A DNA stretch of 27,279 bases from a virus (taxonomy: Duplodnaviria > Heunggongvirae > Uroviricota > Caudoviricetes). Positions 1 through 24,991 of the stretch are shown piece after piece. The notes beneath the pieces are model-generated. The model had not been told where the DNA came from and did not search any database. It saw only the letters and a program-made list of their open reading frames with translations. Location of the stretch: IMG/VR virus record IMGVR_UViG_2541047774_000009, one strand, 5' to 3'. The stretch's first letter is position 1, and every line of letters starts with the position of its first letter. The position numbers and the translations under genes are program-made.

Positions 1-3053
<3,053 letters not shown>

Positions 3054-3079
<26 letters not shown>

Positions 3080-3599
3080 TCAGCAACCCCGGTATCAGTT
3101 CATCCAGCGCGGCTGCTTTGTTCATGGCTTTGATGATATCCCGTTTCAGGAAATCAACATGTCGGTTTTCCAGTTCCGGAAAACGCCGCTGCACCGACAG
3201 GGGGATCCCGTCGAGAATACTGGCAATTTCACCTGCGATCCGCGACAACACGAAAGTACAGAATGCGGTTTCCACCACTTCAGCGGAGTCTCTGGCATTC
3301 TTCAGTTCCTGTGCGTCGGCCTGCGCACGCGTAAGTCGATGGCGTTCGTACTCAATAGTCCCTGGCTGGAGATCTGCCTCGCTGGCCTGCCGCAGTTCTT
3401 CAACCTCCCGGCGCAGCTTTTCGTTCTCAATTTCAGCATCCCTTTCGGCATACCATTTTATGACGGCGGCAGAGTCATAAAGCACCTCATTACCCTTGCC
3501 ACCGCCTCGCAGAACGGGCATTCCCTGTTCCTGCCAGTTCTGAATGGTACGGATACTCGCACCGAAAATGTCAGCCAGCTGCTTTTTGTTGACTTCCAT
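3054..3599 (-). CDS. Nu1: Terminase small subunit Nu1 (181 aa)
   Basis: Translation MEVNKKQLADIFGASIRTIQNWQEQGMPVLRGGGKGNEVLYDSAAVIKWYAERDAEIENEKLRREVEEL matches lambda Nu1; located immediately downstream of cos. Confidence 0.95.
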
Positions 3600-3776
3600 T
3601 GTTCATTCCACGGACAAAAACAGAGAAAGGAAACGACAGAGGCCAAAAAGCTCGCTTTCAGCACCTGTCGTTTCCTTTCTTTTCAGGGGGTATTTTAAAT
3701 AAAAACATTAAGTTACGACGAAGAAGAACGGAAACACCTTAAACCGGAAAATTTTCATAAATAGCGAAAACCCGCG

Positions 3777-3788
3777 AGGTCGCCGCCC
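3777..3788 (-). other. cosN cohesive-end sequence (12 nt); cosB lies between here and Nu1 start (3600-3776)
   Basis: Reverse complement of 3777-3788 is GGGCGGCGACCT, the lambda 5' cohesive end; reverse complement of 3600-3790 reproduces the lambda left-end sequence (GGGCGGCGACCTCGCGGGTTTTCGCTATTTATGAAAATTTTCCGG...). Confidence 0.85.
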
Positions 3789-3937
3789 CGTAGCCTGTTG
3801 GATCGCCGGAAAGGACCCGAAAAACGAGAATAATTATCACTTACAGCAAGAATCGAATCTGATCTATTATGGTGCTTGCTATTATGTGCCGGCACAAGTG
3901 CGTCGTTTACCGTCATTTCACACAGAGGCATCATCAA

Positions 3938-4189
3938 ATGAAAATCAGAAATATTCTCGCTATCTCCCTTGCAACATCATCCTTCAGTTGCCTGGCATTT
4001 AAATCCTCGCCCAATGTGCTACCAGGACCAACGAATCAACTAACTGCGGTAGAAAGTAAAATTATCGGACATTTTTATGCCCCACACAGTGCATTACCCG
4101 GAACAACCATCACAGGGACATGTGACGCCTCCCCCGTCCCGGGATGCACCTGTCCGTTTTGTACTATGCTGCGTAGCCAAAACCGATAA
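3938..4189 (+). CDS. Hypothetical small secreted protein (83 aa) with N-terminal signal peptide and Cys-rich C-terminus
   Basis: Internal ATG of track ORF 3869..4189; product MKIRNILAISLATSSFSCLAFK... has a hydrophobic signal-like N-terminus and CDASPVPGCTCPFC near the C-terminus; no family recognised. Confidence 0.3.
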   Translation: MKIRNILAISLATSSFSCLAFKSSPNVLPGPTNQLTAVESKIIGHFYAPHSALPGTTITGTCDASPVPGCTCPFCTMLRSQNR

Positions 4190-4552: not shown

Positions 4553-4879
4553 TCAGGGACGTGACGGCGTAAAGATAAATTGTCTCTTCACTCCCTGACA
4601 GGGACGATTCTTTTCAAATCGCCATTTCGCCATGGCCTTCACCACTTCATCACGAAACAAATTATGAGGCTCTGAGCGGAGAAAAACGATCCGTGTCACA
4701 GTCCCATCAGCACCAATATCGAACTTAACCTCAACCAGCCCCTTGATATAATTTGCTGCAGCATATTCCGGATATCGTGGATACACCGTCACTAATTGCC
4801 GGGGCTCATCAGCTTTTTGCTGCGAGCATCCCACTGCTAGGACAGATAACAGAAAAAGTAGTAAAAGGCGTCTTTTCAT
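4553..4879 (-). CDS. Lipoprotein with TonB C-terminal-like domain (108 aa)
   Basis: Start at internal ATG 4877-4879 with AGGA upstream; N-terminus MKRRLLLLFLLSVLAVGCSQQ (signal peptide plus lipobox LAVGC); C-terminal segment YIKGLVEVKFDIGADGTVTRIVFLRSEPHNLFRDEVVKAMAKWRFE resembles TonB C-terminal fold. Confidence 0.5.
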   Translation of the reverse strand: MKRRLLLLFLLSVLAVGCSQQKADEPRQLVTVYPRYPEYAAANYIKGLVEVKFDIGADGTVTRIVFLRSEPHNLFRDEVVKAMAKWRFEKNRPCQGVKRQFIFTPSRP

Positions 4880-5359
4880 TTTTATTCCTACGGGTCTTAT
4901 TCTGACAATATATCCTGTGTTCCAGACTGCCACATCACCACATCCTGTGCCATTATCTGACTCACATTACATACATCGCATCGGGATACAGTAGTAGCAC
5001 TTTCTGTAATACAGCTTCCGGTTTCTTCCACCATCGCACCGGGATAAATCCGCGAATCATTAACGCGGTAAAAACCCGGTGTGCATCGTTTTTAATTATT
5101 CCCGCACACTCACGCAGAAGGAATTCCCCGTCGGGCTACGGTCATGGTTAATGCGGGAATACGGCGACGATACAGCGCAGCTAAAAGGGTAATGGACGGA
5201 TAGACCGGTTTATTTCATTCTACAGGATTCTGAGTGTCCCCAACTCCCTCCAATCGTCTGAGCTCACCTGTGTAGTTTTAATTTTCATCAATCCATTTAA
5301 CTATCGTTTAATTGTTGTCACATAGGATTCTGCCGTTTTTAACAATGCAGGATAATAAG

Positions 5360-6146: not shown

Positions 6147-6676
6147 TGATCTATCCCCCAACAGGCTAATGCGCTTTCCTGGTCACGACGAATAACCTGT
6201 CCATAGCAGTTATTTGAACGTATGCGGCAATCGCGCCCACCATCTTTTATCCACCAGCGAATCGCCTCGCATGCACCTTTACGATCACCGGCATTCAGCC
6301 GCTTATAAAACGTCGACGGGAAACACTTACCGGGGCCAATGTTATAGGGACAAAATGACGCGATACCCGCTTTCTGTGGTTCGGTCAGTGGCACTTTAAT
6401 ATTGCGCTCCACCCATGCCAGCGCCTTATCCCGTTCAATGGCGTTAACCTGGTCGCATTTTTCCTTCGACAGTTTCATACCGGGAACAACGGGTTTTCCA
6501 TCCACCACCGTGGCACCCCGACAGATGGTCCAGATGCCGGAACCATCGCGGTATGCCGTTGTGTGGTTACCTTCTTTTTCATCCAGAAACTGGTCGAGAA
6601 TATCAGGCGCAGGCGCACCGACGGCAATCAGTGCCAGAACGGCAGCCGACAGGCCGTATCTGATTTTTGCGTTCAT
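6143..6676 (-). CDS. R: SAR endolysin (GH24 T4-lysozyme-like, 177 aa)
   Basis: N-terminal signal-arrest-release segment [16 protein letters not shown] followed by catalytic E-x8-D-x5-T triad ([16 protein letters not shown]); matches P21/933W-type R rather than lambda transglycosylase. Confidence 0.9.
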
Positions 6677-6781
6677 GGATATTTATCAGGATTTATCGGT
6701 TTCTGAACCCTGGATATGTTTATCTGTCCCGGCCTGTTGAATCAGGCAAGGAATAGTTAAATACAATAGAGAGGATTGTTT

Positions 6782-7054
6782 ATGGACAATAGCACCATTT
6801 CTCTACAGGAGTTGCTCGACTGCATTTCCAGGCTTCGGGATGATGTAAATGCCCTTACTGTCGCATTTTCATATCTGGCATTCTCAATTCCCAAGGAACA
6901 AATGCAACCAACACTGGCATCGCTCCAGCTTGAATCAATCAATCCCAAATGGTCCCAGCAACAACAAAATTCTTTCAAGTGGCTGGCGGTATTACTGGAG
7001 GAAAAATATGCTGGTGAAATTACCATTTCGGCGGAGTCTTCAGTGAACCAGTAA
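6782..7054 (+). CDS. Hypothetical small protein (90 aa), antisense to the lysis operon
   Basis: ATG at 6782 preceded by GAGAGGA (6767-6773); occupies a 343-nt gap between the DUF1327-like gene and R; 3' end overlaps DUF1327-like gene on the opposite strand by 35 nt; no family recognised. Confidence 0.35.
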   Translation: MDNSTISLQELLDCISRLRDDVNALTVAFSYLAFSIPKEQMQPTLASLQLESINPKWSQQQQNSFKWLAVLLEEKYAGEITISAESSVNQ

Positions 7055-7364
7055 TTCTTCCCGGCAGTTTTCCTTTGTAGGTTATCCACACACTCTGCGC
7101 CTCTAAAATTATGGGGCGCTTTTCCGGCGACTGCTCATCCCCTCCACATAACCCGGCAGCAACATCCAGGAAGACCTGTCTGATGCTCCTTCTGGCTGCT
7201 GCCTCATAAAACTCCAGCGCGGCACCTTCAACACGGTCCAGCGAGATGTCCAGGTCAAAAATTTCACCGTCAAAGCGTTCTTTGTCCTGTAATGCTAAAG
7301 TTACCGTAACTTTATTCTCAAAATTGCGGATCCCTTTCACAATCATTTCATAGTTTTGGACCAT
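7020..7364 (-). CDS. DUF1327-family phage protein (YdfR-like, 114 aa)
   Basis: MVQNYEMIVKGIRNFENKVTVTLALQDKERFDGEIFDL...; AGGAG RBS; sits between holin and endolysin as ydfR does in Qin-type prophages; start 4 nt after holin stop. Confidence 0.6.
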   Translation of the reverse strand: MVQNYEMIVKGIRNFENKVTVTLALQDKERFDGEIFDLDISLDRVEGAALEFYEAAARRSIRQVFLDVAAGLCGGDEQSPEKRPIILEAQSVWITYKGKLPGRITGSLKTPPKW

Positions 7365-8677: not shown

Positions 8678-9769
8678 TCACAAAATTGTATTTGCTGATA
8701 ACATACTGATTTCCTGGATGGTCTGATTAAACCGCTCTGTCTCAAGCTCAACACCTAACGCCCGACGCCCCAGCGCCATTGCTGCTTTTATTGTGGAACC
8801 GGATCCCATAAAGAAATCAGCAACCAGATCGCCGGGTCGACTACTGGCATTGATTATTTGCCTGAGCATATCCGCCGGTTTCTCACACGGATGTTTACCC
8901 GGGTAGAACTGAACGGGTTTATGCATCCAGACATCGGTATAAGGCACGGAGACTGATACGGAGAAATAGCGCCGGAGAGATTTAAACTCATCCAGCAATT
9001 CAGAATATTTGCGATTCAGTGAATCATAAGATGCCACCAACTGGTGGTGTGGTTGTTCCAGTTGTTGTTCCTGAAACTTCTCTGCCGCTATACGGGAAAA
9101 CAGTGCCTGTAACTTCCGGTAGTCAGCCTCATTCGGCAACTGCCACTGACTGGCACCAAACCAGTGGGAAACCATATTTTTCTTACCTGTGGCTTCGGCA
9201 ATTTGTTTTGCCGTTATACCCAGTTCGGCACGAGCATCCCTGAAATACGATATCAGCGGTGCCATTATGTGCTGTTTGAGTTCCCTTTCTTTTGCCGCAT
9301 AGCCGTCACTTTTGCCGCGATATGGCCCCTGGTAATGTTCAGCAAACAGAACGCGCTCTGTGGCAGGAAAATATGCGCGCAGACTTTCTTTATTACACCC
9401 ATTCCAACGTCCGGACGGCTTCGCCCAGATGATATGGTTAAGCACGTTGAAACGTTCACGCATCATGATCTCAATATCAGATGCCAGGCGATGCCCACAG
9501 AACAGGTAAAGGCTTCCGGCTGGTTTCAGTACCCGCCAGAACTGGGCCAGACAGTGGTCCAGCCACTTCAGGTAATCTTCGTCCCCTTTCCACTGATTGT
9601 CCCAGCCGTTGGGCTTCACTTTGAAGTACGGCGGATCGGTAACAATCAGATCAATGGAGTTATCAGGCAGGGACTGAATAAAATGCAGGCAATCAGCGTT
9701 GATTAAATCAACACTGTTTATTTTTACAGTATTTTCATGGATCAGTAAGCGTAACTCTGGTAGGCTCAC
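8678..9769 (-). CDS. Orphan DNA methyltransferase, beta-class N6-adenine/N4-cytosine type (363 aa)
   Basis: Motif IV DPPY near N-terminus (LIVTDPPYF) and AdoMet motif I near C-terminus (DFFMGSGST): circularly permuted beta-class order; GTG start at 9769; no adjacent endonuclease gene. Confidence 0.8.
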   Translation of the reverse strand: MSLPELRLLIHENTVKINSVDLINADCLHFIQSLPDNSIDLIVTDPPYFKVKPNGWDNQWKGDEDYLKWLDHCLAQFWRVLKPAGSLYLFCGHRLASDIEIMMRERFNVLNHIIWAKPSGRWNGCNKESLRAYFPATERVLFAEHYQGPYRGKSDGYAAKERELKQHIMAPLISYFRDARAELGITAKQIAEATGKKNMVSHWFGASQWQLPNEADYRKLQALFSRIAAEKFQEQQLEQPHHQLVASYDSLNRKYSELLDEFKSLRRYFSVSVSVPYTDVWMHKPVQFYPGKHPCEKPADMLRQIINASSRPGDLVADFFMGSGSTIKAAMALGRRALGVELETERFNQTIQEISMLSANTIL

Positions 9770-9888: not shown

Positions 9889-10092
9889 TTACTGGCAGCG
9901 TCTGAATTTATTCCCGTACCCGCCGTTATCCTTCGCCAGACCCGCCAGAACTAACTGAGTCAGTATTAACTGGCACCGGGCTTCGCTTACTCCGGTAGTT
10001 CTCGTCATCATGCGTGGCGTTACCCACTTGTCAGCAGGTAAGAAATGAAGGACTGCGGCGGCGGTTTCTGTCATATCTTGCTGTTTTAGCAT
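9889..10092 (-). CDS. Hypothetical small winged-helix-like protein (67 aa from internal ATG; ORF extends to 10116)
   Basis: ORF co-oriented with and 119 nt upstream of the methyltransferase; helix-turn-helix-like segment TPRMMTRTTGVSEARCQLILTQLVLAGL; internal ATG has GAAGGG upstream; no family recognised. Confidence 0.3.
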   Translation of the reverse strand: MLKQQDMTETAAAVLHFLPADKWVTPRMMTRTTGVSEARCQLILTQLVLAGLAKDNGGYGNKFRRCQ

Positions 10093-10411
10093 GTCTTTTT
10101 CCCTTCTGGTTAACATGACATACCAATAACTCTTGTCTAAAAAGCCAGCAAGATAAAAAGTCAGTATTCACGACCACCAGCGTGTTTACTGTGCTGCACC
10201 AAGTTTACAGGTACAAAAAAACCGCTCAGCGGCGGGTTTAAGTTGTGTGGCGAAGTAACCACTCTTAACACAGTAATCTAGAAAATGCGGACCGCGTTAG
10301 TGATTTTTATCTGTTTTTCCATTATTTTTTTGCCACACAGCTTAAAACGAAAAATAAAGCAGGCGTTGCCAAACCTCACGGTGACAGTTGGCTTAGAATG
10401 AGGACATATTT

Positions 10412-11431
10412 TTGGATAAGTTTGATGAGATTCATGTAGACATTGAATCTGAGCAGCAAGCCTTCGATTTGCTTGAAAGCTATCTTGATGGTTATGGTTT
10501 ACCTGACAGTTTAAGTTTCAACGGATGGCCAAACCTTACCATCAGATTAACCGGTGAAAAATTCAACAGATCGCTAACACCTTCAGTTATGAAGGGATTT
10601 GTTGAAATGCAAGCTCAAATCAACAAATCATATGCCCTTGCCAAGTACGGTGTCCCTGACGTCCGCAAACTGACCAAAGAAGAACTTGATGCCCTAGAAA
10701 TAGAAGTTACGGTAGAACAGGGTTCTTCAATAGTAGAAATCAACATTGATGGCTTTTTAACCAAACTCACACAGGAACTTGTTGGTAAAATGAACGCAAC
10801 TGAGATCATGTTTACTGTTCTCGGCGCAGCAGTCATCTGGGGCGGAGTAACAGTATTTAAACGGTTCTTGGACAACCGTAAAGATATTCGCCTTGCAGAA
10901 ATTGCTAAGGATGGAGAGAAAGAACATCTCCGGACTATGCAGATCATGAGCGAGCAAGAAACTAAACGCCTGCGGGTTATTTCAGAAATGATTGCGGAAA
11001 AACCACTTCTCGATAACATGGACCGTATGTCGTATGACGCTAAAACCCAAATGGTCAAATCCTTTGTGCGTTCAGATAACGCTCAAATTGATGGCGTTAC
11101 TATTGATTCTGAAATGGCGAAAGAGTTGGTTACGAATGCTCGTAGACGTTCATCAGAAATGAGGATTGATGGTATTTACCGAATTGAAGAAGTCAATAAT
11201 ACTGACCCAGAGAGTTTCAAAGTTAAGGTCCGACGCGTAGATACCGACCAACGTCTAACCTGCGTAGTTCAGGATGTTTTCCTTGATGAATCCGGAAACA
11301 AAGAAGCATTGCAGCGAGCTGAGTGGGAAAGAAAGCCTGTACATTTGAGCATTAACGCAAAACACGTCGATGGTGACATTAAGTCAGCAGTAATTCTCTA
11401 TGTTCGAGATGTGGAACAAAAGCCCGAGTAA
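10412..11431 (+). CDS. Hypothetical membrane-anchored protein (339 aa, single central TM helix), lower-GC moron convergent with late genes
   Basis: TTG start with GAGGA 7 nt upstream; one hydrophobic helix (IMFTVLGAAVIWGGVTVF, residues about 133-150) separating two soluble domains; stop codon sits in the loop of a hairpin shared with the convergent Q gene; no catalytic motif recognised. Confidence 0.6.
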   Translation: MDKFDEIHVDIESEQQAFDLLESYLDGYGLPDSLSFNGWPNLTIRLTGEKFNRSLTPSVMKGFVEMQAQINKSYALAKYGVPDVRKLTKEELDALEIEVTVEQGSSIVEINIDGFLTKLTQELVGKMNATEIMFTVLGAAVIWGGVTVFKRFLDNRKDIRLAEIAKDGEKEHLRTMQIMSEQETKRLRVISEMIAEKPLLDNMDRMSYDAKTQMVKSFVRSDNAQIDGVTIDSEMAKELVTNARRRSSEMRIDGIYRIEEVNNTDPESFKVKVRRVDTDQRLTCVVQDVFLDESGNKEALQRAEWERKPVHLSINAKHVDGDIKSAVILYVRDVEQKPE

Positions 11432-11438
11432 TCGGGCT
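11417..11438 (-). terminator. Hairpin terminator immediately downstream of Q (shared with convergent 339-aa gene)
   Basis: 7-bp stem AGCCCGA/TCGGGCT (11421-11427/11432-11438) with GTAA loop; on the minus strand followed by TTTTGTT. Confidence 0.5.
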
Positions 11439-11445
11439 TCAATAA

Positions 11446-11823
11446 TCAATCTTTAATTTCGGGGTCCATCTCTAGACTAATTTCCAGCATCGATAGGCAG
11501 CCATCAATAAACCCCTCAGCCATCTGTATCTCAATGCGTATTAGTTTCTCATCCTTTTTACGAGCCTTGGCGAGCTTTCTTTTAGAGATACCGTATAGGT
11601 AATGGGCAACAAGAAGCGAATGTTCGTCCGGCCTTTTTTGCCTTAGACGAGCAAGACAACCTTCAATAATTAATGCATCACTATCTGAACATGCCTGACG
11701 TGTTTTGCTTGTATAGGGAAGAAGCCCTTTAAACCCAGCAGCTATAGGAGAATAGTCTACTCCTGAACTATCACTCGCCGCCCATGCTCCCCAACGATCC
11801 AGAACCATTTGAATATCACGCAT
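11446..11823 (-). CDS. Late-gene antiterminator Q, phage-82/QuuD type (125 aa)
   Basis: MRDIQMVLDRWGAWAA...IAAGFKGL...C.D.DA.II.GC.ARL...LL..YY...KAEG.I.G.L..L.I.LEMD pattern matching QuuD/Q82 family; GGAGA RBS before ATG 11823. Confidence 0.8.
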   Translation of the reverse strand: MRDIQMVLDRWGAWAASDSSGVDYSPIAAGFKGLLPYTSKTRQACSDSDALIIEGCLARLRQKRPDEHSLLVAHYLYGISKRKLAKARKKDEKLIRIEIQMAEGFIDGCLSMLEISLEMDPEIKD

Positions 11824-11840
11824 CAACTTTCTCCACAAAA

Positions 11841-12836
11841 TCAGGCCAGCACGCCAATTGCCAGCGCACGATCGATAAAACGAAATATCAGCTCCAGCTG
11901 GGAGCCATACTTCTCTTCAAATGCCACGGTATCCGCATGCAGCTCGTCGTGATGCTTTCTGCACAAAGGCAACACAAAGAGGTCATGCGCTTTTGTACCC
12001 ATTCCCCCCTGACCGTGGCCTATCAGGTGGTGGGGATCATCAGCAGGCTTTCCACAACATGCACACGGCTGTGTCTTAACCCAGCGCGTGTACTTTTCAT
12101 TAACCCAGCGGCGACGTTTTGGGCGTAACATAAAAGACTCCGGCGACTCCGGATCCACTTTCAGCGCCAGCACCTTTTTCGCCTTATCCTGGATGATGCT
12201 GGTGGCAGGAACCGAAGGCACAAGGTCACTTTCCCGGGTGACAGACGGCACAACAGGCTTCGGTAATCTCAGTGCCTTACGGGCTGCACTTTCCGGTAAG
12301 GCATCCGCCAGGTCATTACGAATCAGCCACCAGCACAGTTCCGGCATTGTCACAACGTGACTGTCATCAAAACCGAGATCCCGACGCACAACAGACAACA
12401 CCCAGCGGGCACAGTTATCCGTTGCCATTGATTCCAGCCGTTCCGTGAACTGATCGCGCAGCTGGTTATCGCAGTGCCAGCACAGACGGATTGCGCCCGG
12501 CGCGTGTCGCATTGTTGTCATGTTCTCGCTGTGCCAGTCGGAATGAGGCCACTGGCAGCCTTTTTCACGAAGTAACCAGCTTTCAAGACATTCCACGCCA
12601 CCAGCACGACGGATCACTGCCTCATTGCGGAACACGGCCCGAACGACAGGATCATCCGCCAGCGGTTGTGATGCCGCCGGAACGGCACCACTGGCAAAAG
12701 ATGAATAACGTTCCGGCTCAGGCTCCAGCAGGACACGCCCCTGCATAAACAGGGGCATCAGCTCTGAACCAGGTCTGAACAATACGATCCCCATACGCGG
12801 GGCAATTTCAGGGGTCAGTAGTGCTCTCACAGTCAC
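11841..12836 (-). CDS. DUF968-family phage protein with C-terminal HNH-like motif (331 aa, start uncertain)
   Basis: C-terminal cysteine/histidine cluster CACCGKP...HHLIGHGQGGMGTKAHDLFVLPLCRKHHDELH typical of DUF968 nin-region proteins. Confidence 0.65.
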   Translation of the reverse strand: MTVRALLTPEIAPRMGIVLFRPGSELMPLFMQGRVLLEPEPERYSSFASGAVPAASQPLADDPVVRAVFRNEAVIRRAGGVECLESWLLREKGCQWPHSDWHSENMTTMRHAPGAIRLCWHCDNQLRDQFTERLESMATDNCARWVLSVVRRDLGFDDSHVVTMPELCWWLIRNDLADALPESAARKALRLPKPVVPSVTRESDLVPSVPATSIIQDKAKKVLALKVDPESPESFMLRPKRRRWVNEKYTRWVKTQPCACCGKPADDPHHLIGHGQGGMGTKAHDLFVLPLCRKHHDELHADTVAFEEKYGSQLELIFRFIDRALAIGVLA

Positions 12837-18282: not shown

Positions 18283-18957
18283 ATGAAAACAGTCCATGAC
18301 ATCCGGCGGTCTAACGCCAGAAAACTGAGAGATGGTGTTGGCGGGAATTCTTCCTTTGCCACCATGATTGATCGCGAGCCAACCCAGACCAGCAGGTTTA
18401 TGGGAGATGGTGCTACTAAAAATATCGGTGACAGCATGGCGCGGCACATCGAAAAATGTTTCGACCTGCCTGTCGGATGGCTTGATCAAGAACACCAGAC
18501 CACGAACATCACAAAAAAACCTGATGTTTCAATCACTAACAAACAAATAACGTTAGTCCCTGTCATATCATGGGTACAGGCCGGAGCATGGAAAGAAGTT
18601 GGCTATTCTGAGGTTGATTTGAGCACAGCAGAAACTTACCCCTGCCCTGTACCCTGTGGCGAAATGACTTATATCTTGCGGGTGATTGGTGATTCAATGA
18701 TTGATGAGTACCGCCCGGGAGACATGATTTTTGTTGATCCTGAAGTCCCTGCCTGCCACGGTGACGACGTTATTGCATTGATGCACGATACAGGCGAAAC
18801 CACCTTCAAGCGGTTGATAGAAGATGGAACACAGCGTTACCTCAAAGCATTAAACCCAAACTGGCCTGAACCTTACATTAAGATCAACGGTAATTGCTCT
18901 ATAATTGGTACAGTGATTTTCTCAGGAAAACCAAGAAGATACAAAATAAAGACCTAA
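18283..18957 (+). CDS. cI: CI-like prophage repressor with C-terminal S24 (LexA-type) peptidase domain (224 aa)
   Basis: C-terminal autocleavage domain with GDSM serine motif and downstream Lys (RVIGDSMIDEY...FKRL); divergent from cro. Confidence 0.85.
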   Translation: MKTVHDIRRSNARKLRDGVGGNSSFATMIDREPTQTSRFMGDGATKNIGDSMARHIEKCFDLPVGWLDQEHQTTNITKKPDVSITNKQITLVPVISWVQAGAWKEVGYSEVDLSTAETYPCPVPCGEMTYILRVIGDSMIDEYRPGDMIFVDPEVPACHGDDVIALMHDTGETTFKRLIEDGTQRYLKALNPNWPEPYIKINGNCSIIGTVIFSGKPRRYKIKT

Positions 18958-22546: not shown

Positions 22547-22753
22547 ATGCTGAACCTCGATTGTGTTCCTATCTCAACTTATTGCAAAGAAACTGGCGAA
22601 ACTCCTGAAGCAATAAACAAACGTGTACAGCGCGGTGTTTGGCGTGAAGGTGTTCAGGTTTTAAAGGTTGAAGGCGTTAAGGAGAGGTGGATTGATCTTA
22701 GTGAGGTTGCAAAATGGGCCAGACAAAACTGCTCAAACTACCGCGCGGCGTAA
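22547..22753 (+). CDS. xis: Excisionase-like protein (68 aa; alternative start 22535)
   Basis: Small basic ORF immediately upstream of and overlapping int by 40 nt; GGAG RBS; resembles prophage excisionase-like proteins. Confidence 0.6.
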   Translation: MLNLDCVPISTYCKETGETPEAINKRVQRGVWREGVQVLKVEGVKERWIDLSEVAKWARQNCSNYRAA

Positions 22754-23889
22754 CAATCAGGAAACACCGCCAGGGCGAAACGATCAATATAACTTTCACC
22801 TACAAAGGAGTTAGATGTCGTGAGCCGCTTTCCAATCTGGAAGTAACACCAAAGAACATTAAATACGCCGAGCGTACACTCGGCGAAATCCATAATAAGA
22901 TCGAAAGGGGAACATTCATTTATGCAGAATATTTTCCCCGTTCTGCTCGTTTGAAAATTTTTGGTAATGCTGCTGCAGGCAAAACGGTAAAGATGTACCT
23001 GGACGAATATCTTGAAATCTGCGAAACAAGAAAACTTTCACCCTCTACGATTGGTGGCTATAAAAAATGCCGTAGTGCGTTAGCCTCACTTCACATTTGC
23101 CCTGCAAGTGAATTAACACCAGCAACCCTGAAAGCGTGGATTCAAAGCCAGAAAACAACCTTAAAAACCATTCGCAACCAGTTATCTTTCCTGCGGTCAG
23201 CACTTGATGAAGCCGTGACCGATGGGGTACTTCAAATTAACCCCGTATCGTTAGTAACAGCTTCGCGCTACCAAAGTGATAAGTCAGAAGCAGAAAGCAG
23301 CTATGTGGTTGATCCGCTATCACCAGCAGAAGTTGATGCATTACTAGCAGCAGCCGGAAACAAACAATGGGAAAATCTGTTCCGGTTCGCTATACATACA
23401 GGCCTGCGTAGTTCTGAACTATGTGCCCTTCGATGGCGTGATATCGACTTTGTTGGAAAAACAGCACATGTCCAGAGCGCAAGTGTTGTTGGTGTTATCA
23501 AAGGGACCAAAACAAAAGCCGGTACTCGTAAAGTTGAACTGACAGAAGAGGCAATGTTGGCGCTGATAAATCAGAAGCCATTTACGTTCATGAAAGATGC
23601 TACGGTCTTTGAAGATCCAAAGACCAATAAGCCTTGGGCAAGTGCTGATGCAATCAGGAAAAAAGCATGGGTGCCAACATTGCGAAAAGCAGGTATTCGC
23701 TACAGAAACCCATATCAGACCAGGCACACTTATGCTACTAAGTACATTAGCCAAGGAGCTAATCTCTTCTGGCTAGCAGGGCAGATGGGGCATAAGGGGC
23801 CCGAAATGTTGTTTCGTCATTATGGGCGTTACTTGAGTGATTATGACAACCACAGCTCAACAACGCTCACAAGTAATTGCAAAAAGTAG
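22714..23889 (+). CDS. int: Tyrosine integrase (391 aa)
   Basis: Catalytic-domain motifs HTGLRSSEL (Arg), RHTYATK (His/Arg) and LFRHYGRYL (Tyr nucleophile); N-terminal arm-binding-like domain. Confidence 0.9.
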   Translation: MGQTKLLKLPRGVTIRKHRQGETINITFTYKGVRCREPLSNLEVTPKNIKYAERTLGEIHNKIERGTFIYAEYFPRSARLKIFGNAAAGKTVKMYLDEYLEICETRKLSPSTIGGYKKCRSALASLHICPASELTPATLKAWIQSQKTTLKTIRNQLSFLRSALDEAVTDGVLQINPVSLVTASRYQSDKSEAESSYVVDPLSPAEVDALLAAAGNKQWENLFRFAIHTGLRSSELCALRWRDIDFVGKTAHVQSASVVGVIKGTKTKAGTRKVELTEEAMLALINQKPFTFMKDATVFEDPKTNKPWASADAIRKKAWVPTLRKAGIRYRNPYQTRHTYATKYISQGANLFWLAGQMGHKGPEMLFRHYGRYLSDYDNHSSTTLTSNCKK

Positions 23890-24139: not shown

Positions 24140-24991
24140 ATGACTACACCAGTAATAAGTTTCATAAATATGAAAGGTGGGGTTGGTAAAACAACTTTAT
24201 GCGTCGGCATTGCTGAATATCTTGCAAACTTCATGGATAAAAAGGTATTAATTATCGATATTGACCCACAATTTAACGCTACACAGTCAATACTTAGTAA
24301 ATATGATCGAGTGAAAGAGTATATAGCTGATCACTTAGAAAATACAAAAACCATCAGACGAATATTCGAGACAAAATCAAGCTTAACGGGTAAAGTTCAG
24401 CAGGTCACTCCTGATGAAATTATCATCAAGATGTCAGAGCACTTAGATATGATTTTTGGTGATATTAATACAATATTTGATATTGAACAACCTGCGGCAA
24501 GATTACATAAGCTAAAACGCTTTATAGAAGAACATAAGCTTCGAGATATATATGACTTCATTTTGATCGATAGCCCACCAACCATTTCATTATTTACTGA
24601 TGCAGCTCTCGTTGCTTCAGATTATTATATTGTGCCAGTTAAAATTGACCACTACTCAATTTTAGGTGCGACAAGTCTTTTAAGCGTAATAGAAAACATT
24701 CAAGATAATTATGACCATAAAAACATTCAAAACCTTGGTTTTATTTATACTAATACCCTAGAAAATCTATCAAAAAAGACAAAAAAGCTAAAGACAGACT
24801 TTGAAAGTACTGAACCTTTTAATGAACTATACTTTTTTGATAACCAGTTGAAGTTTGTACAGGATTTGATGGTGGGTGGTAGAGGTAATATATCATCAAG
24901 TTATAAATCATCCAGAAAATATATCAAAGCGATTTGTGAAGAGTTTTTAAGTCGGATCCAAGAAGTGCAAACGGGGGGGGAAGATGAATAA
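24140..24991 (+). CDS. ParA/MinD-family P-loop ATPase (283 aa)
   Basis: Deviant Walker A MKGGVGKTT, IDIDPQFNATQ motif, ILIDSPPTISLF Walker B-like segment; AGAGGGA RBS; AT-rich. Confidence 0.85.
   Translation: MTTPVISFINMKGGVGKTTLCVGIAEYLANFMDKKVLIIDIDPQFNATQSILSKYDRVKEYIADHLENTKTIRRIFETKSSLTGKVQQVTPDEIIIKMSEHLDMIFGDINTIFDIEQPAARLHKLKRFIEEHKLRDIYDFILIDSPPTISLFTDAALVASDYYIVPVKIDHYSILGATSLLSVIENIQDNYDHKNIQNLGFIYTNTLENLSKKTKKLKTDFESTEPFNELYFFDNQLKFVQDLMVGGRGNISSSYKSSRKYIKAICEEFLSRIQEVQTGGEDE

Follow-up and report, generated by a model that had tools for sequence, protein, structure and literature searches.

A phage cargo gene between Q and the lysis genes encodes a predicted membrane-anchored protein with a probable role in anti-phage defence

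In the window analysed here, a 27,279-nucleotide stretch of prophage DNA (class Caudoviricetes; IMG/VR record IMGVR_UViG_2541047774_000009), a gene for a 339-aa protein (10412-11431, + strand; hereafter the cargo gene) lies tail-to-tail with the gene for the Q antiterminator (11446-11838, − strand). With slightly better than even confidence, we read its product as an anti-phage defence protein encoded by one gene, expressed in the lysogen and held in the inner membrane by a single helix. For this uncharacterised family, DefensePredictor has already predicted a role in defence by computation; it is from this one machine-learning prediction and from genomic context, which is the most informative evidence, that we infer the role. 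By analogy, the logic would be closest to that of the abortive-infection (Abi) proteins AbiP and PdpSau or of exclusion proteins that block injection.

Genomic contexts of the gene and its homologues

The open reading frame (ORF) of the cargo gene starts with TTG, ends with TAA and is identical to a coding sequence of Escherichia coli APEC O78 that RefSeq labels WP_000357056.1, "hypothetical protein". It matches PHROG 6191 end to end (E = 1.6e-152, residues 3-337 against positions 2-337 of a 338-position profile), a family of unassigned function, membership of which says nothing on the role of the protein. As the first-pass annotation of this DNA had supposed, no Pfam, NCBIfam or PADLOC family could be assigned, either to the protein or to 138 of its relatives, nor was it found to be homologous to any characterised family of structural or housekeeping proteins. 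A word-indexed search returned 101 full-length relatives of about 335 aa, all "hypothetical", from Enterobacterales to Pseudomonas, Acinetobacter and Burkholderiales, and members also occur in Halomonas-group bacteria (Vreelandella, Halomonas). A profile search of 1.84 billion cluster representatives yielded 1,511 clusters (at 50% identity) at E <= 1e-3, 587 of them at E <= 1e-30, nearly all 320-350 aa long and of a single architecture. The gene is present in 87 of 5,426 complete E. coli genomes, while in the isolated-phage collection relatives occur only in Moraxella phage Mcat17, Pasteurella phage Pmp14 and E. coli phage phi458, whose Orf11 is genuinely, if distantly, homologous (hhalign probability 99.4). 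The homologues are intact, and since pN between genera is low (0.08-0.28) against a saturated pS (0.70-0.85) and full-length homologues number in the hundreds, the gene is real and under purifying selection. A literature search on the protein accessions and on phrog_6191 gave nothing beyond the DefensePredictor table.

Homologues occupy at least five unrelated cargo slots of temperate phages, always as a single gene. The slot seen in the window recurs among 80 IMG/VR loci, in 48 of which a Q homologue is convergent with the cargo homologue across a gap of 5-23 bp; this arrangement, with a Q of the Q21 family, was found in genomes of four genera, including Entomohabitans, Rahnella and Serratia. 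In 17 of the 80 loci the homologue lies 3' of a cI homologue on the same strand, with gaps of 62-295 bp. A position directly 3' of a cI-type repressor was likewise found in Salmonella/Klebsiella-type prophages (147-bp gap by gene calls), in Morganella, in two Pseudomonas genomes (26-43 bp) and in the phages Mcat17 and phi458, while in Acinetobacter at least one ORF separates the repressor from the downstream homologue. The Morganella locus has no terminator between cI and the homologue and a strong one right after it. A third slot is in the tail cluster, on the strand of the tail genes, either between I and J (P. aeruginosa) or between the genes of the G/T chaperones and of the tape measure protein, adjoining a lipoprotein gene (about ten IMG/VR contigs). 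In a Mu-like head cluster the homologue follows a gpG-like gene. Finally, a Burkholderiaceae genome carries a homologue inside a type I restriction-modification (R-M) locus that holds no phage genes, with HsdM, HsdS, HsdR and a PD-(D/E)XK protein as neighbours and an NTase/substrate-binding-protein pair of MNT-HEPN type beside it. No partner gene is conserved across the five contexts, and the system is therefore one of a single gene.

Two observations on individual loci stand apart. In the tail-slot loci of IMG/VR, a 136-aa lipoprotein gene with a lipobox (~6161-6571) lies 3' of the homologue and just 5' of the tape measure gene, and may be a second exclusion-type moron. In one Q-linked IMG/VR locus, two ORFs for small membrane proteins (156 and 129 aa; 6222-7091, − strand) lie between the homologue and Q. 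The tail assembly blocker Tab, considered for the tail-cluster context, was rejected, being a small unrelated protein in a different slot.

A position 3' of cI on its strand implies expression together with the repressor in lysogens, and the recurrence of one gene in five cargo slots points to a defence function expressed there. In the window itself the gene adjoins Q, outside the cI operon. The contexts could also be those of a protein serving the life cycle of the phage that carries it. Bound to the membrane, it might modulate the choice between lysis and lysogeny, induction, the timing of lysis, or DNA injection or assembly by that phage. Such a role would suit its place beside the regulatory genes Q and cI and, in some phages, within late operons on the strand of the tail or head genes. 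Lambda rexAB, in the equivalent cI slot, has been reported to influence the lysogenic-lytic switch. We nevertheless consider this explanation unlikely, as the gene is dispensable, given its restriction to 87 of 5,426 E. coli genomes and its absence from close phages with the same Q slot; moreover, it is antisense to the late genes in the window, it uses five slots in unrelated phage types, and the R-M locus that harbours one of the copies contains no phage genes.

The defence reading agrees with a published prediction. WP_000357056.1 is listed as "Predicted novel defense gene" in Table S10 of the DefensePredictor study (Science 2026), with a mean log-odds of 6.55 (range 4.5-9.7), the stringent cutoff being 4; neither HHblits nor Foldseek matched it to known defence proteins (PMC13092281). 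Of the units cloned there, 45% worked, with a success rate that increased with log-odds (PMC13092281). The protein is absent from the table of 118 cloned units, and the sequences compared from that table are unrelated to it. Of the three functions for which the first-pass annotation had named the protein a candidate, superinfection exclusion and abortive infection are thus strengthened by the cI-linked homologues, the R-M copy and DefensePredictor, whereas conversion of a virulence type has become unlikely in view of the spread of the family.

The Q-to-lysis slot and the boundaries of the cassette

The Q protein of the window is of the Q21 type (PF06530, E = 2e-52), and the cargo cassette (~10320-11445, about 1.1 kb) is sited exactly between its stop codon and a conserved non-coding block (10221-10322, − strand; TAAAAATCACTAACGCGGTCCGCA ... 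TGTTAAGAGTGGTTACTTCGCCACACAACTT). Delimited by nucleotide conservation and a terminator scan, the block has an intrinsic terminator at its end (stem 10233-10221, with T7 after it) and is conserved in phage cdtI, in K-12 DLP12 and in the Entomohabitans, Rahnella and Serratia loci. In the Stx2a phage Stx2_499, which has no cargo and whose Q protein is 74% identical, the Q stop codon is immediately followed by the block, after which come the 75-aa ORF and the methyltransferase that also follow it in the window, upstream of tRNAs and stx2AB. Because the block abuts Q in this cargo-less phage, we place the insertion of the cassette between the Q stop and the block. Other phages have other genes at this point: K-12 DLP12 carries the porin gene nmpC, antisense, and phage cdtI an antisense two-gene cargo (locus 2772-4160) consisting of the gene of a 313-aa DUF6731 protein and an ORF of 147 aa. 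This exact mapping of the cassette refines the view of the Q-to-lysis cargo site in DLP12-like and Stx-like prophages.

The proposal of the first-pass annotation that the gene is a moron is borne out by this presence or absence at a defined point between syntenic phages. With respect to transcription signals of its own, the cassette has a strong conserved hairpin and a candidate promoter element with a weak −35, which a consensus scan did not call. With respect to deviant base composition, the lower GC content that had been remarked on holds relative to the window (0.420 against 0.471), yet the dip is modest and weakly specific, as the adjoining Q is equally low (GC 0.438) and has an even lower GC3 (0.359 against 0.385 for the ORF).

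On its promoter side, the ORF is preceded by a Shine-Dalgarno sequence, GAGGA (10401-10405, + strand), read from the sequence 6 nt 5' of the TTG, which confirms the start that had been noted earlier. A GAGG, AAGG or GGGG motif stands at the same distance from the start in 12 Q-linked homologous loci; TTG and the Shine-Dalgarno sequence are kept in all 12, and the Salmonella homologue has the TTG as well. A conserved TTG fits a low protein level. The candidate promoter (10297-10325, + strand) consists of TTAGTG (10297-10302), a 17-nt variable spacer and CATTAT (10320-10325). Its −35 is weak. A TTAGTG-17 nt-nATTAT/nTTTAT element recurs in 12/12 Q-linked loci, with constant spacing and variable spacer sequence.

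At its other end, where the cargo gene and Q converge, the cassette has a terminator-like hairpin that would act in both directions (11420-11439; AAGCCCGA-GTAA-TCGGGCTT). This hairpin spans the last codons of the cargo gene (K-P-E) and its TAA, and 6 nt separate its end from the Q stop codon. The shared hairpin described in the first-pass annotation is therefore present, with a folding energy of −13.6 kcal/mol on the + strand (z = −4.25, 0/200 shuffles as good) and of −15.8 kcal/mol on the − strand. It is retained in the Entomohabitans, Rahnella and Serratia loci, though Q has diverged there to 50-56% identity.

The block itself is probably the Q-utilisation or late promoter-terminator module as well as the lysis-side boundary of the cassette, since in position it matches the promoter-pause-terminator unit found after the Q genes of lambdoid phages (10.1101/651190). 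No convincing canonical −35/−10 hexamers for a late promoter were found inside it. If the assignment is right, late transcripts originate on the lysis side and head in the direction opposite to the cargo gene, which would thus be convergent with Q and with early-right read-through, and late transcription probably does not cross it. The earlier description of the gene as convergent with late transcription is accordingly probably wrong, as the cassette is bounded by the Q stop and by a block with terminator that directly abuts Q in Stx2_499. This is the one claim of the first-pass annotation in need of correction; what it observed is otherwise largely right, and its interpretation is reasonable and has gained support. 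Two further observations concern the same region: the block holds a direct repeat with 10-bp spacing (GTTAAGAGTG/GTTACTTCGC), possibly the Q-binding element, and a sub-threshold Rfam match to the Salmonella sRNA STnc130 (10111-10247, + strand; 25 bits against a gathering score of 55) extends over the full model length and over the terminator region.

On the lysis side, the first genes after the terminator are the 75-aa ORF (9889-10116, − strand; phrog_331, with weak winged-helix/Ren-like matches) and an N6/N4 DNA methyltransferase gene (8678-9769, − strand); beyond Q lies the gene of a DUF968/HNH protein (11841-12836, − strand). The cargo gene was said to be on the strand opposite to all surrounding phage genes, which is correct locally, for these three genes and Q, and fails farther away, where the Bor/Iss gene, cI and the integrase gene share its + strand. 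The S24-type cI repressor of the prophage is encoded at 18283-18957 (+ strand) and the integrase at 22714-23889 (+ strand), followed by a ParA-like ATPase gene (24140-24991). Further cargo comprises the gene of a Bor/Iss serum-resistance lipoprotein (PF06291; 5312-5653, + strand), antisense beside Rz, and that of a small TonB_C-domain protein between the lysis and terminase genes (4553-4933, − strand).

Such neighbours raise the question of whether the cargo gene could be a lysogenic-conversion factor that aids the host, for instance in envelope stress, serum or bile resistance, or colonisation, as bor/iss would. That the prophage carries bor/iss and the TonB_C gene, and that the DLP12 slot holds a porin gene, speaks for it. 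Set against this, the protein has neither signal peptide nor lipobox and is thus not surface-exposed, and the spread of the family over marine Halomonas-group bacteria, Acinetobacter, Pseudomonas and Burkholderiales argues against a niche-specific benefit to the host. Conflict between phages agrees better with the close linkage to cI and with the R-M context, and we regard a conversion factor as very improbable.

Domain layout and predicted membrane topology

The AlphaFold2 model of the cargo protein, built from a 39-sequence alignment, reached a mean pLDDT of 84.7 and a pTM of 0.71 at full length. It predicts an acidic N-terminal alpha/beta domain (residues 1-125; 10412-10786, + strand), a long helix (129-163) that is apolar in its first part, charged helices up to residue 218, and a C-terminal OB-fold-like beta-barrel (residues ~245-335; 11144-11416, + strand) with the conserved motifs R251-x-D-G-x-Y256 and A303-E-W305. 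The near-invariant positions lie mostly in the N-terminal domain (W39, G48, T56-P57, Q67, G104-S105), for which no fold match was obtained.

Remote-homology and structure searches, which the first-pass annotation had proposed, returned the barrel in the model and no known family. The sequence-profile search of the PDB gave no match. Foldseek against viral structures produced full-length alignments at a TM of only 0.24-0.29 (DUF6575 protein of Leptospira phage LE1), which is uninformative. FNIII-A_GpJ (tail tip protein J, PF24801) scored 18.6 bits against a cutoff of 27 and matched 1/138 family members, and the barrel of the modelled cargo protein is of the OB type. The matches to DUF7947 (3/138 homologues, E ~0.001) were sub-threshold and scattered, as was a MetS-like match on the hydrophobic helix, and all of these candidates were rejected.

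The putative single transmembrane segment is the hydrophobic helix of residues 132-149 (10805-10858, + strand; Kyte-Doolittle 1.77), the position of which is conserved. An apolar segment at about residue 129 is found throughout the 138 homologues (mean Kyte-Doolittle maximum 1.72), and alignment columns 132-145 contain 0-1% charged or polar residues at a mean identity of 28%, so that the one hydrophobic segment noted in the first-pass annotation is indeed single. The protein is probably anchored in the membrane by this helix. The alignment gives 2.06 Lys and Arg residues on the N side of the helix against 3.62 on its C side, the C side being the more basic in 70% of the sequences, and a mean net charge of −5.3 for the N-terminal domain. 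Because the C flank is more basic and the N-terminal domain acidic, the positive-inside rule favours a single-pass N-out/C-in topology, with the acidic domain in the periplasm and the charged helices and OB-fold in the cytoplasm. The term "bitopic" used earlier is therefore right as to the number of segments, yet as a topology it is a prediction from a short and marginal helix.

Several features of the protein weigh against a membrane-anchored defence protein. The hydrophobic helix spans only 18 residues, and a hand estimate puts its free energy of insertion at about 0 kcal/mol. A signal peptide is absent, and translocation of a 125-residue N-terminal domain would be unusual; basic N-terminal extensions in a few homologues argue for a cytoplasmic N-terminus. 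The N-terminal domain modelled alone loses confidence (pLDDT 70) relative to the full-length model with its pTM of 0.71, a pattern that could reflect packing of the two halves against each other in a soluble protein. More variation would be expected of a domain that senses fast-evolving phage proteins than of one that holds most of the near-invariant sites. No effector domain (nuclease, protease, NADase) is recognisable, and a PADLOC-DB 2.0 scan of the protein returned 0 families at E <= 1. A strong sigma-70 promoter was not found upstream of the gene by the consensus scan. The 138-sequence family profile showed no homology to PdpSau (phage 53 ORF016; hhalign probability 0.1, only the hydrophobic helix aligned), and there was likewise none to DS-34, a membrane protein of defence (hhalign probability 0.1). 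Lastly, DefensePredictor itself uses genomic context, and its prediction is hence not fully independent of the context argument.

The first of these points are also what would be expected of a soluble or peripherally membrane-associated cytoplasmic protein in which the apolar helix is a buried core or an oligomerisation element, and which would act in defence or regulation through its OB-fold, for example by nucleic-acid binding of the Abi type: the marginal hydrophobicity, the missing signal peptide, the basic extensions and the loss of confidence when the N-terminal domain is modelled alone. We hold such a protein to be improbable, as the 14 consecutive columns with 0-1% polar residues, at so low an identity and flanked by conserved Lys/Arg, are typical of a membrane span and unusual for the core helix of a soluble protein. 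Like the life-cycle and conversion explanations, it is less consistent with dispensability, slot-hopping and the R-M context than the defence reading.

Proposed mode of action and comparison with known systems

On the defence reading, the cassette would be self-contained, with its own weak promoter region, Shine-Dalgarno sequence, low-efficiency TTG and terminator hairpin, and its product would act at the membrane early in superinfection. By analogy, the OB-fold or the helical stalk may bind an incoming phage component, either nucleic acid or a protein of the ejection or tape-measure type. Genome entry or establishment might then be blocked, resulting in superinfection exclusion; alternatively, the small-residue-rich helix could oligomerise and depolarise the membrane, resulting in abortive infection, as is thought for AbiP/PdpSau. 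Upon prophage induction, antisense early-right read-through from Q could silence the cargo gene, a speculation from the conserved tail-to-tail geometry. A far broader version, which we find doubtful, is that the family represents a new and widespread single-protein immunity of the inner membrane without an enzymatic effector: its periplasmic domain would dock on a universal envelope component for phage genome delivery, stalk and OB-fold would capture the genome end or ejection proteins, entry would be plugged for diverse phages across Gammaproteobacteria, and the own prophage would escape through antisense transcription through Q.

If the defence role is true, a large family of 1,511 clusters, with neither a Pfam model nor a known effector domain, joins the catalogue of prophage-encoded immunity, and the combination of an N-terminal domain, one membrane helix and an OB-fold would offer a compact system in which to study how a membrane protein arrests phages without DNA cutting or a second messenger. 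As a single gene in five cargo slots, it also offers a clean marker of the movement of defence cassettes between phage genomes.

Among cargo of the same slot, nmpC of DLP12 and the DUF6731 pair of cdtI share the antisense orientation between a Q21-family Q and the conserved block; their products are unrelated to the cargo protein, and the cargo family also moves to other slots. Superinfection exclusion of the kind of P22 SieA, HK97 gp15 and T4 Imm is marked by expression from the prophage, an inner-membrane location and a block to DNA entry; what bears on it here is the cI-operon position of homologues and the predicted membrane helix.

The immunity-region slot of rexAB and DS-34 is directly 3' of cI, as for many homologues, whereas the copy in the window lies beside Q instead. 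RexAB is a two-gene system, and RexB has four helices. DS-34 is a cI-linked AbiZ-like membrane protein whose defence activity was validated in the DefensePredictor study (PMC13092281). It is a precedent for the position, the cI-linked slot of many homologues, and not a homologue.

With respect to mechanism, SNIPE (PD-lambda-1) is a nuclease anchored in the membrane, which cleaves phage DNA as it is injected (PMC13190303). Its single-pass inner-membrane anchor, outside N-terminus and cytoplasmic ligand-binding domains at the site of genome entry resemble the logic proposed here. The DUF4041 domain and the GIY-YIG nuclease domain of SNIPE were not found in the cargo protein, which has no Pfam or PADLOC match, and a block of entry, if any, must therefore work without DNA cleavage.

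The closest likeness is to PdpSau and AbiP, which are membrane-anchored OB-fold abortive-infection proteins; PdpSau is carried next to the lysis module by Staphylococcus aureus prophages and, upon infection, causes the membrane to depolarise (PMC10127798). Like the cargo protein, as predicted here, PdpSau and the lactococcal AbiP are each encoded by a single gene and combine one membrane helix with an OB-fold domain. The likeness to AbiP is one of description, and nucleic-acid binding and the Abi phenotype are features of the AbiP/PdpSau side. The helix of PdpSau is N-terminal (residues 5-27), whereas the cargo protein has an extra conserved domain of 125 residues before its central helix.

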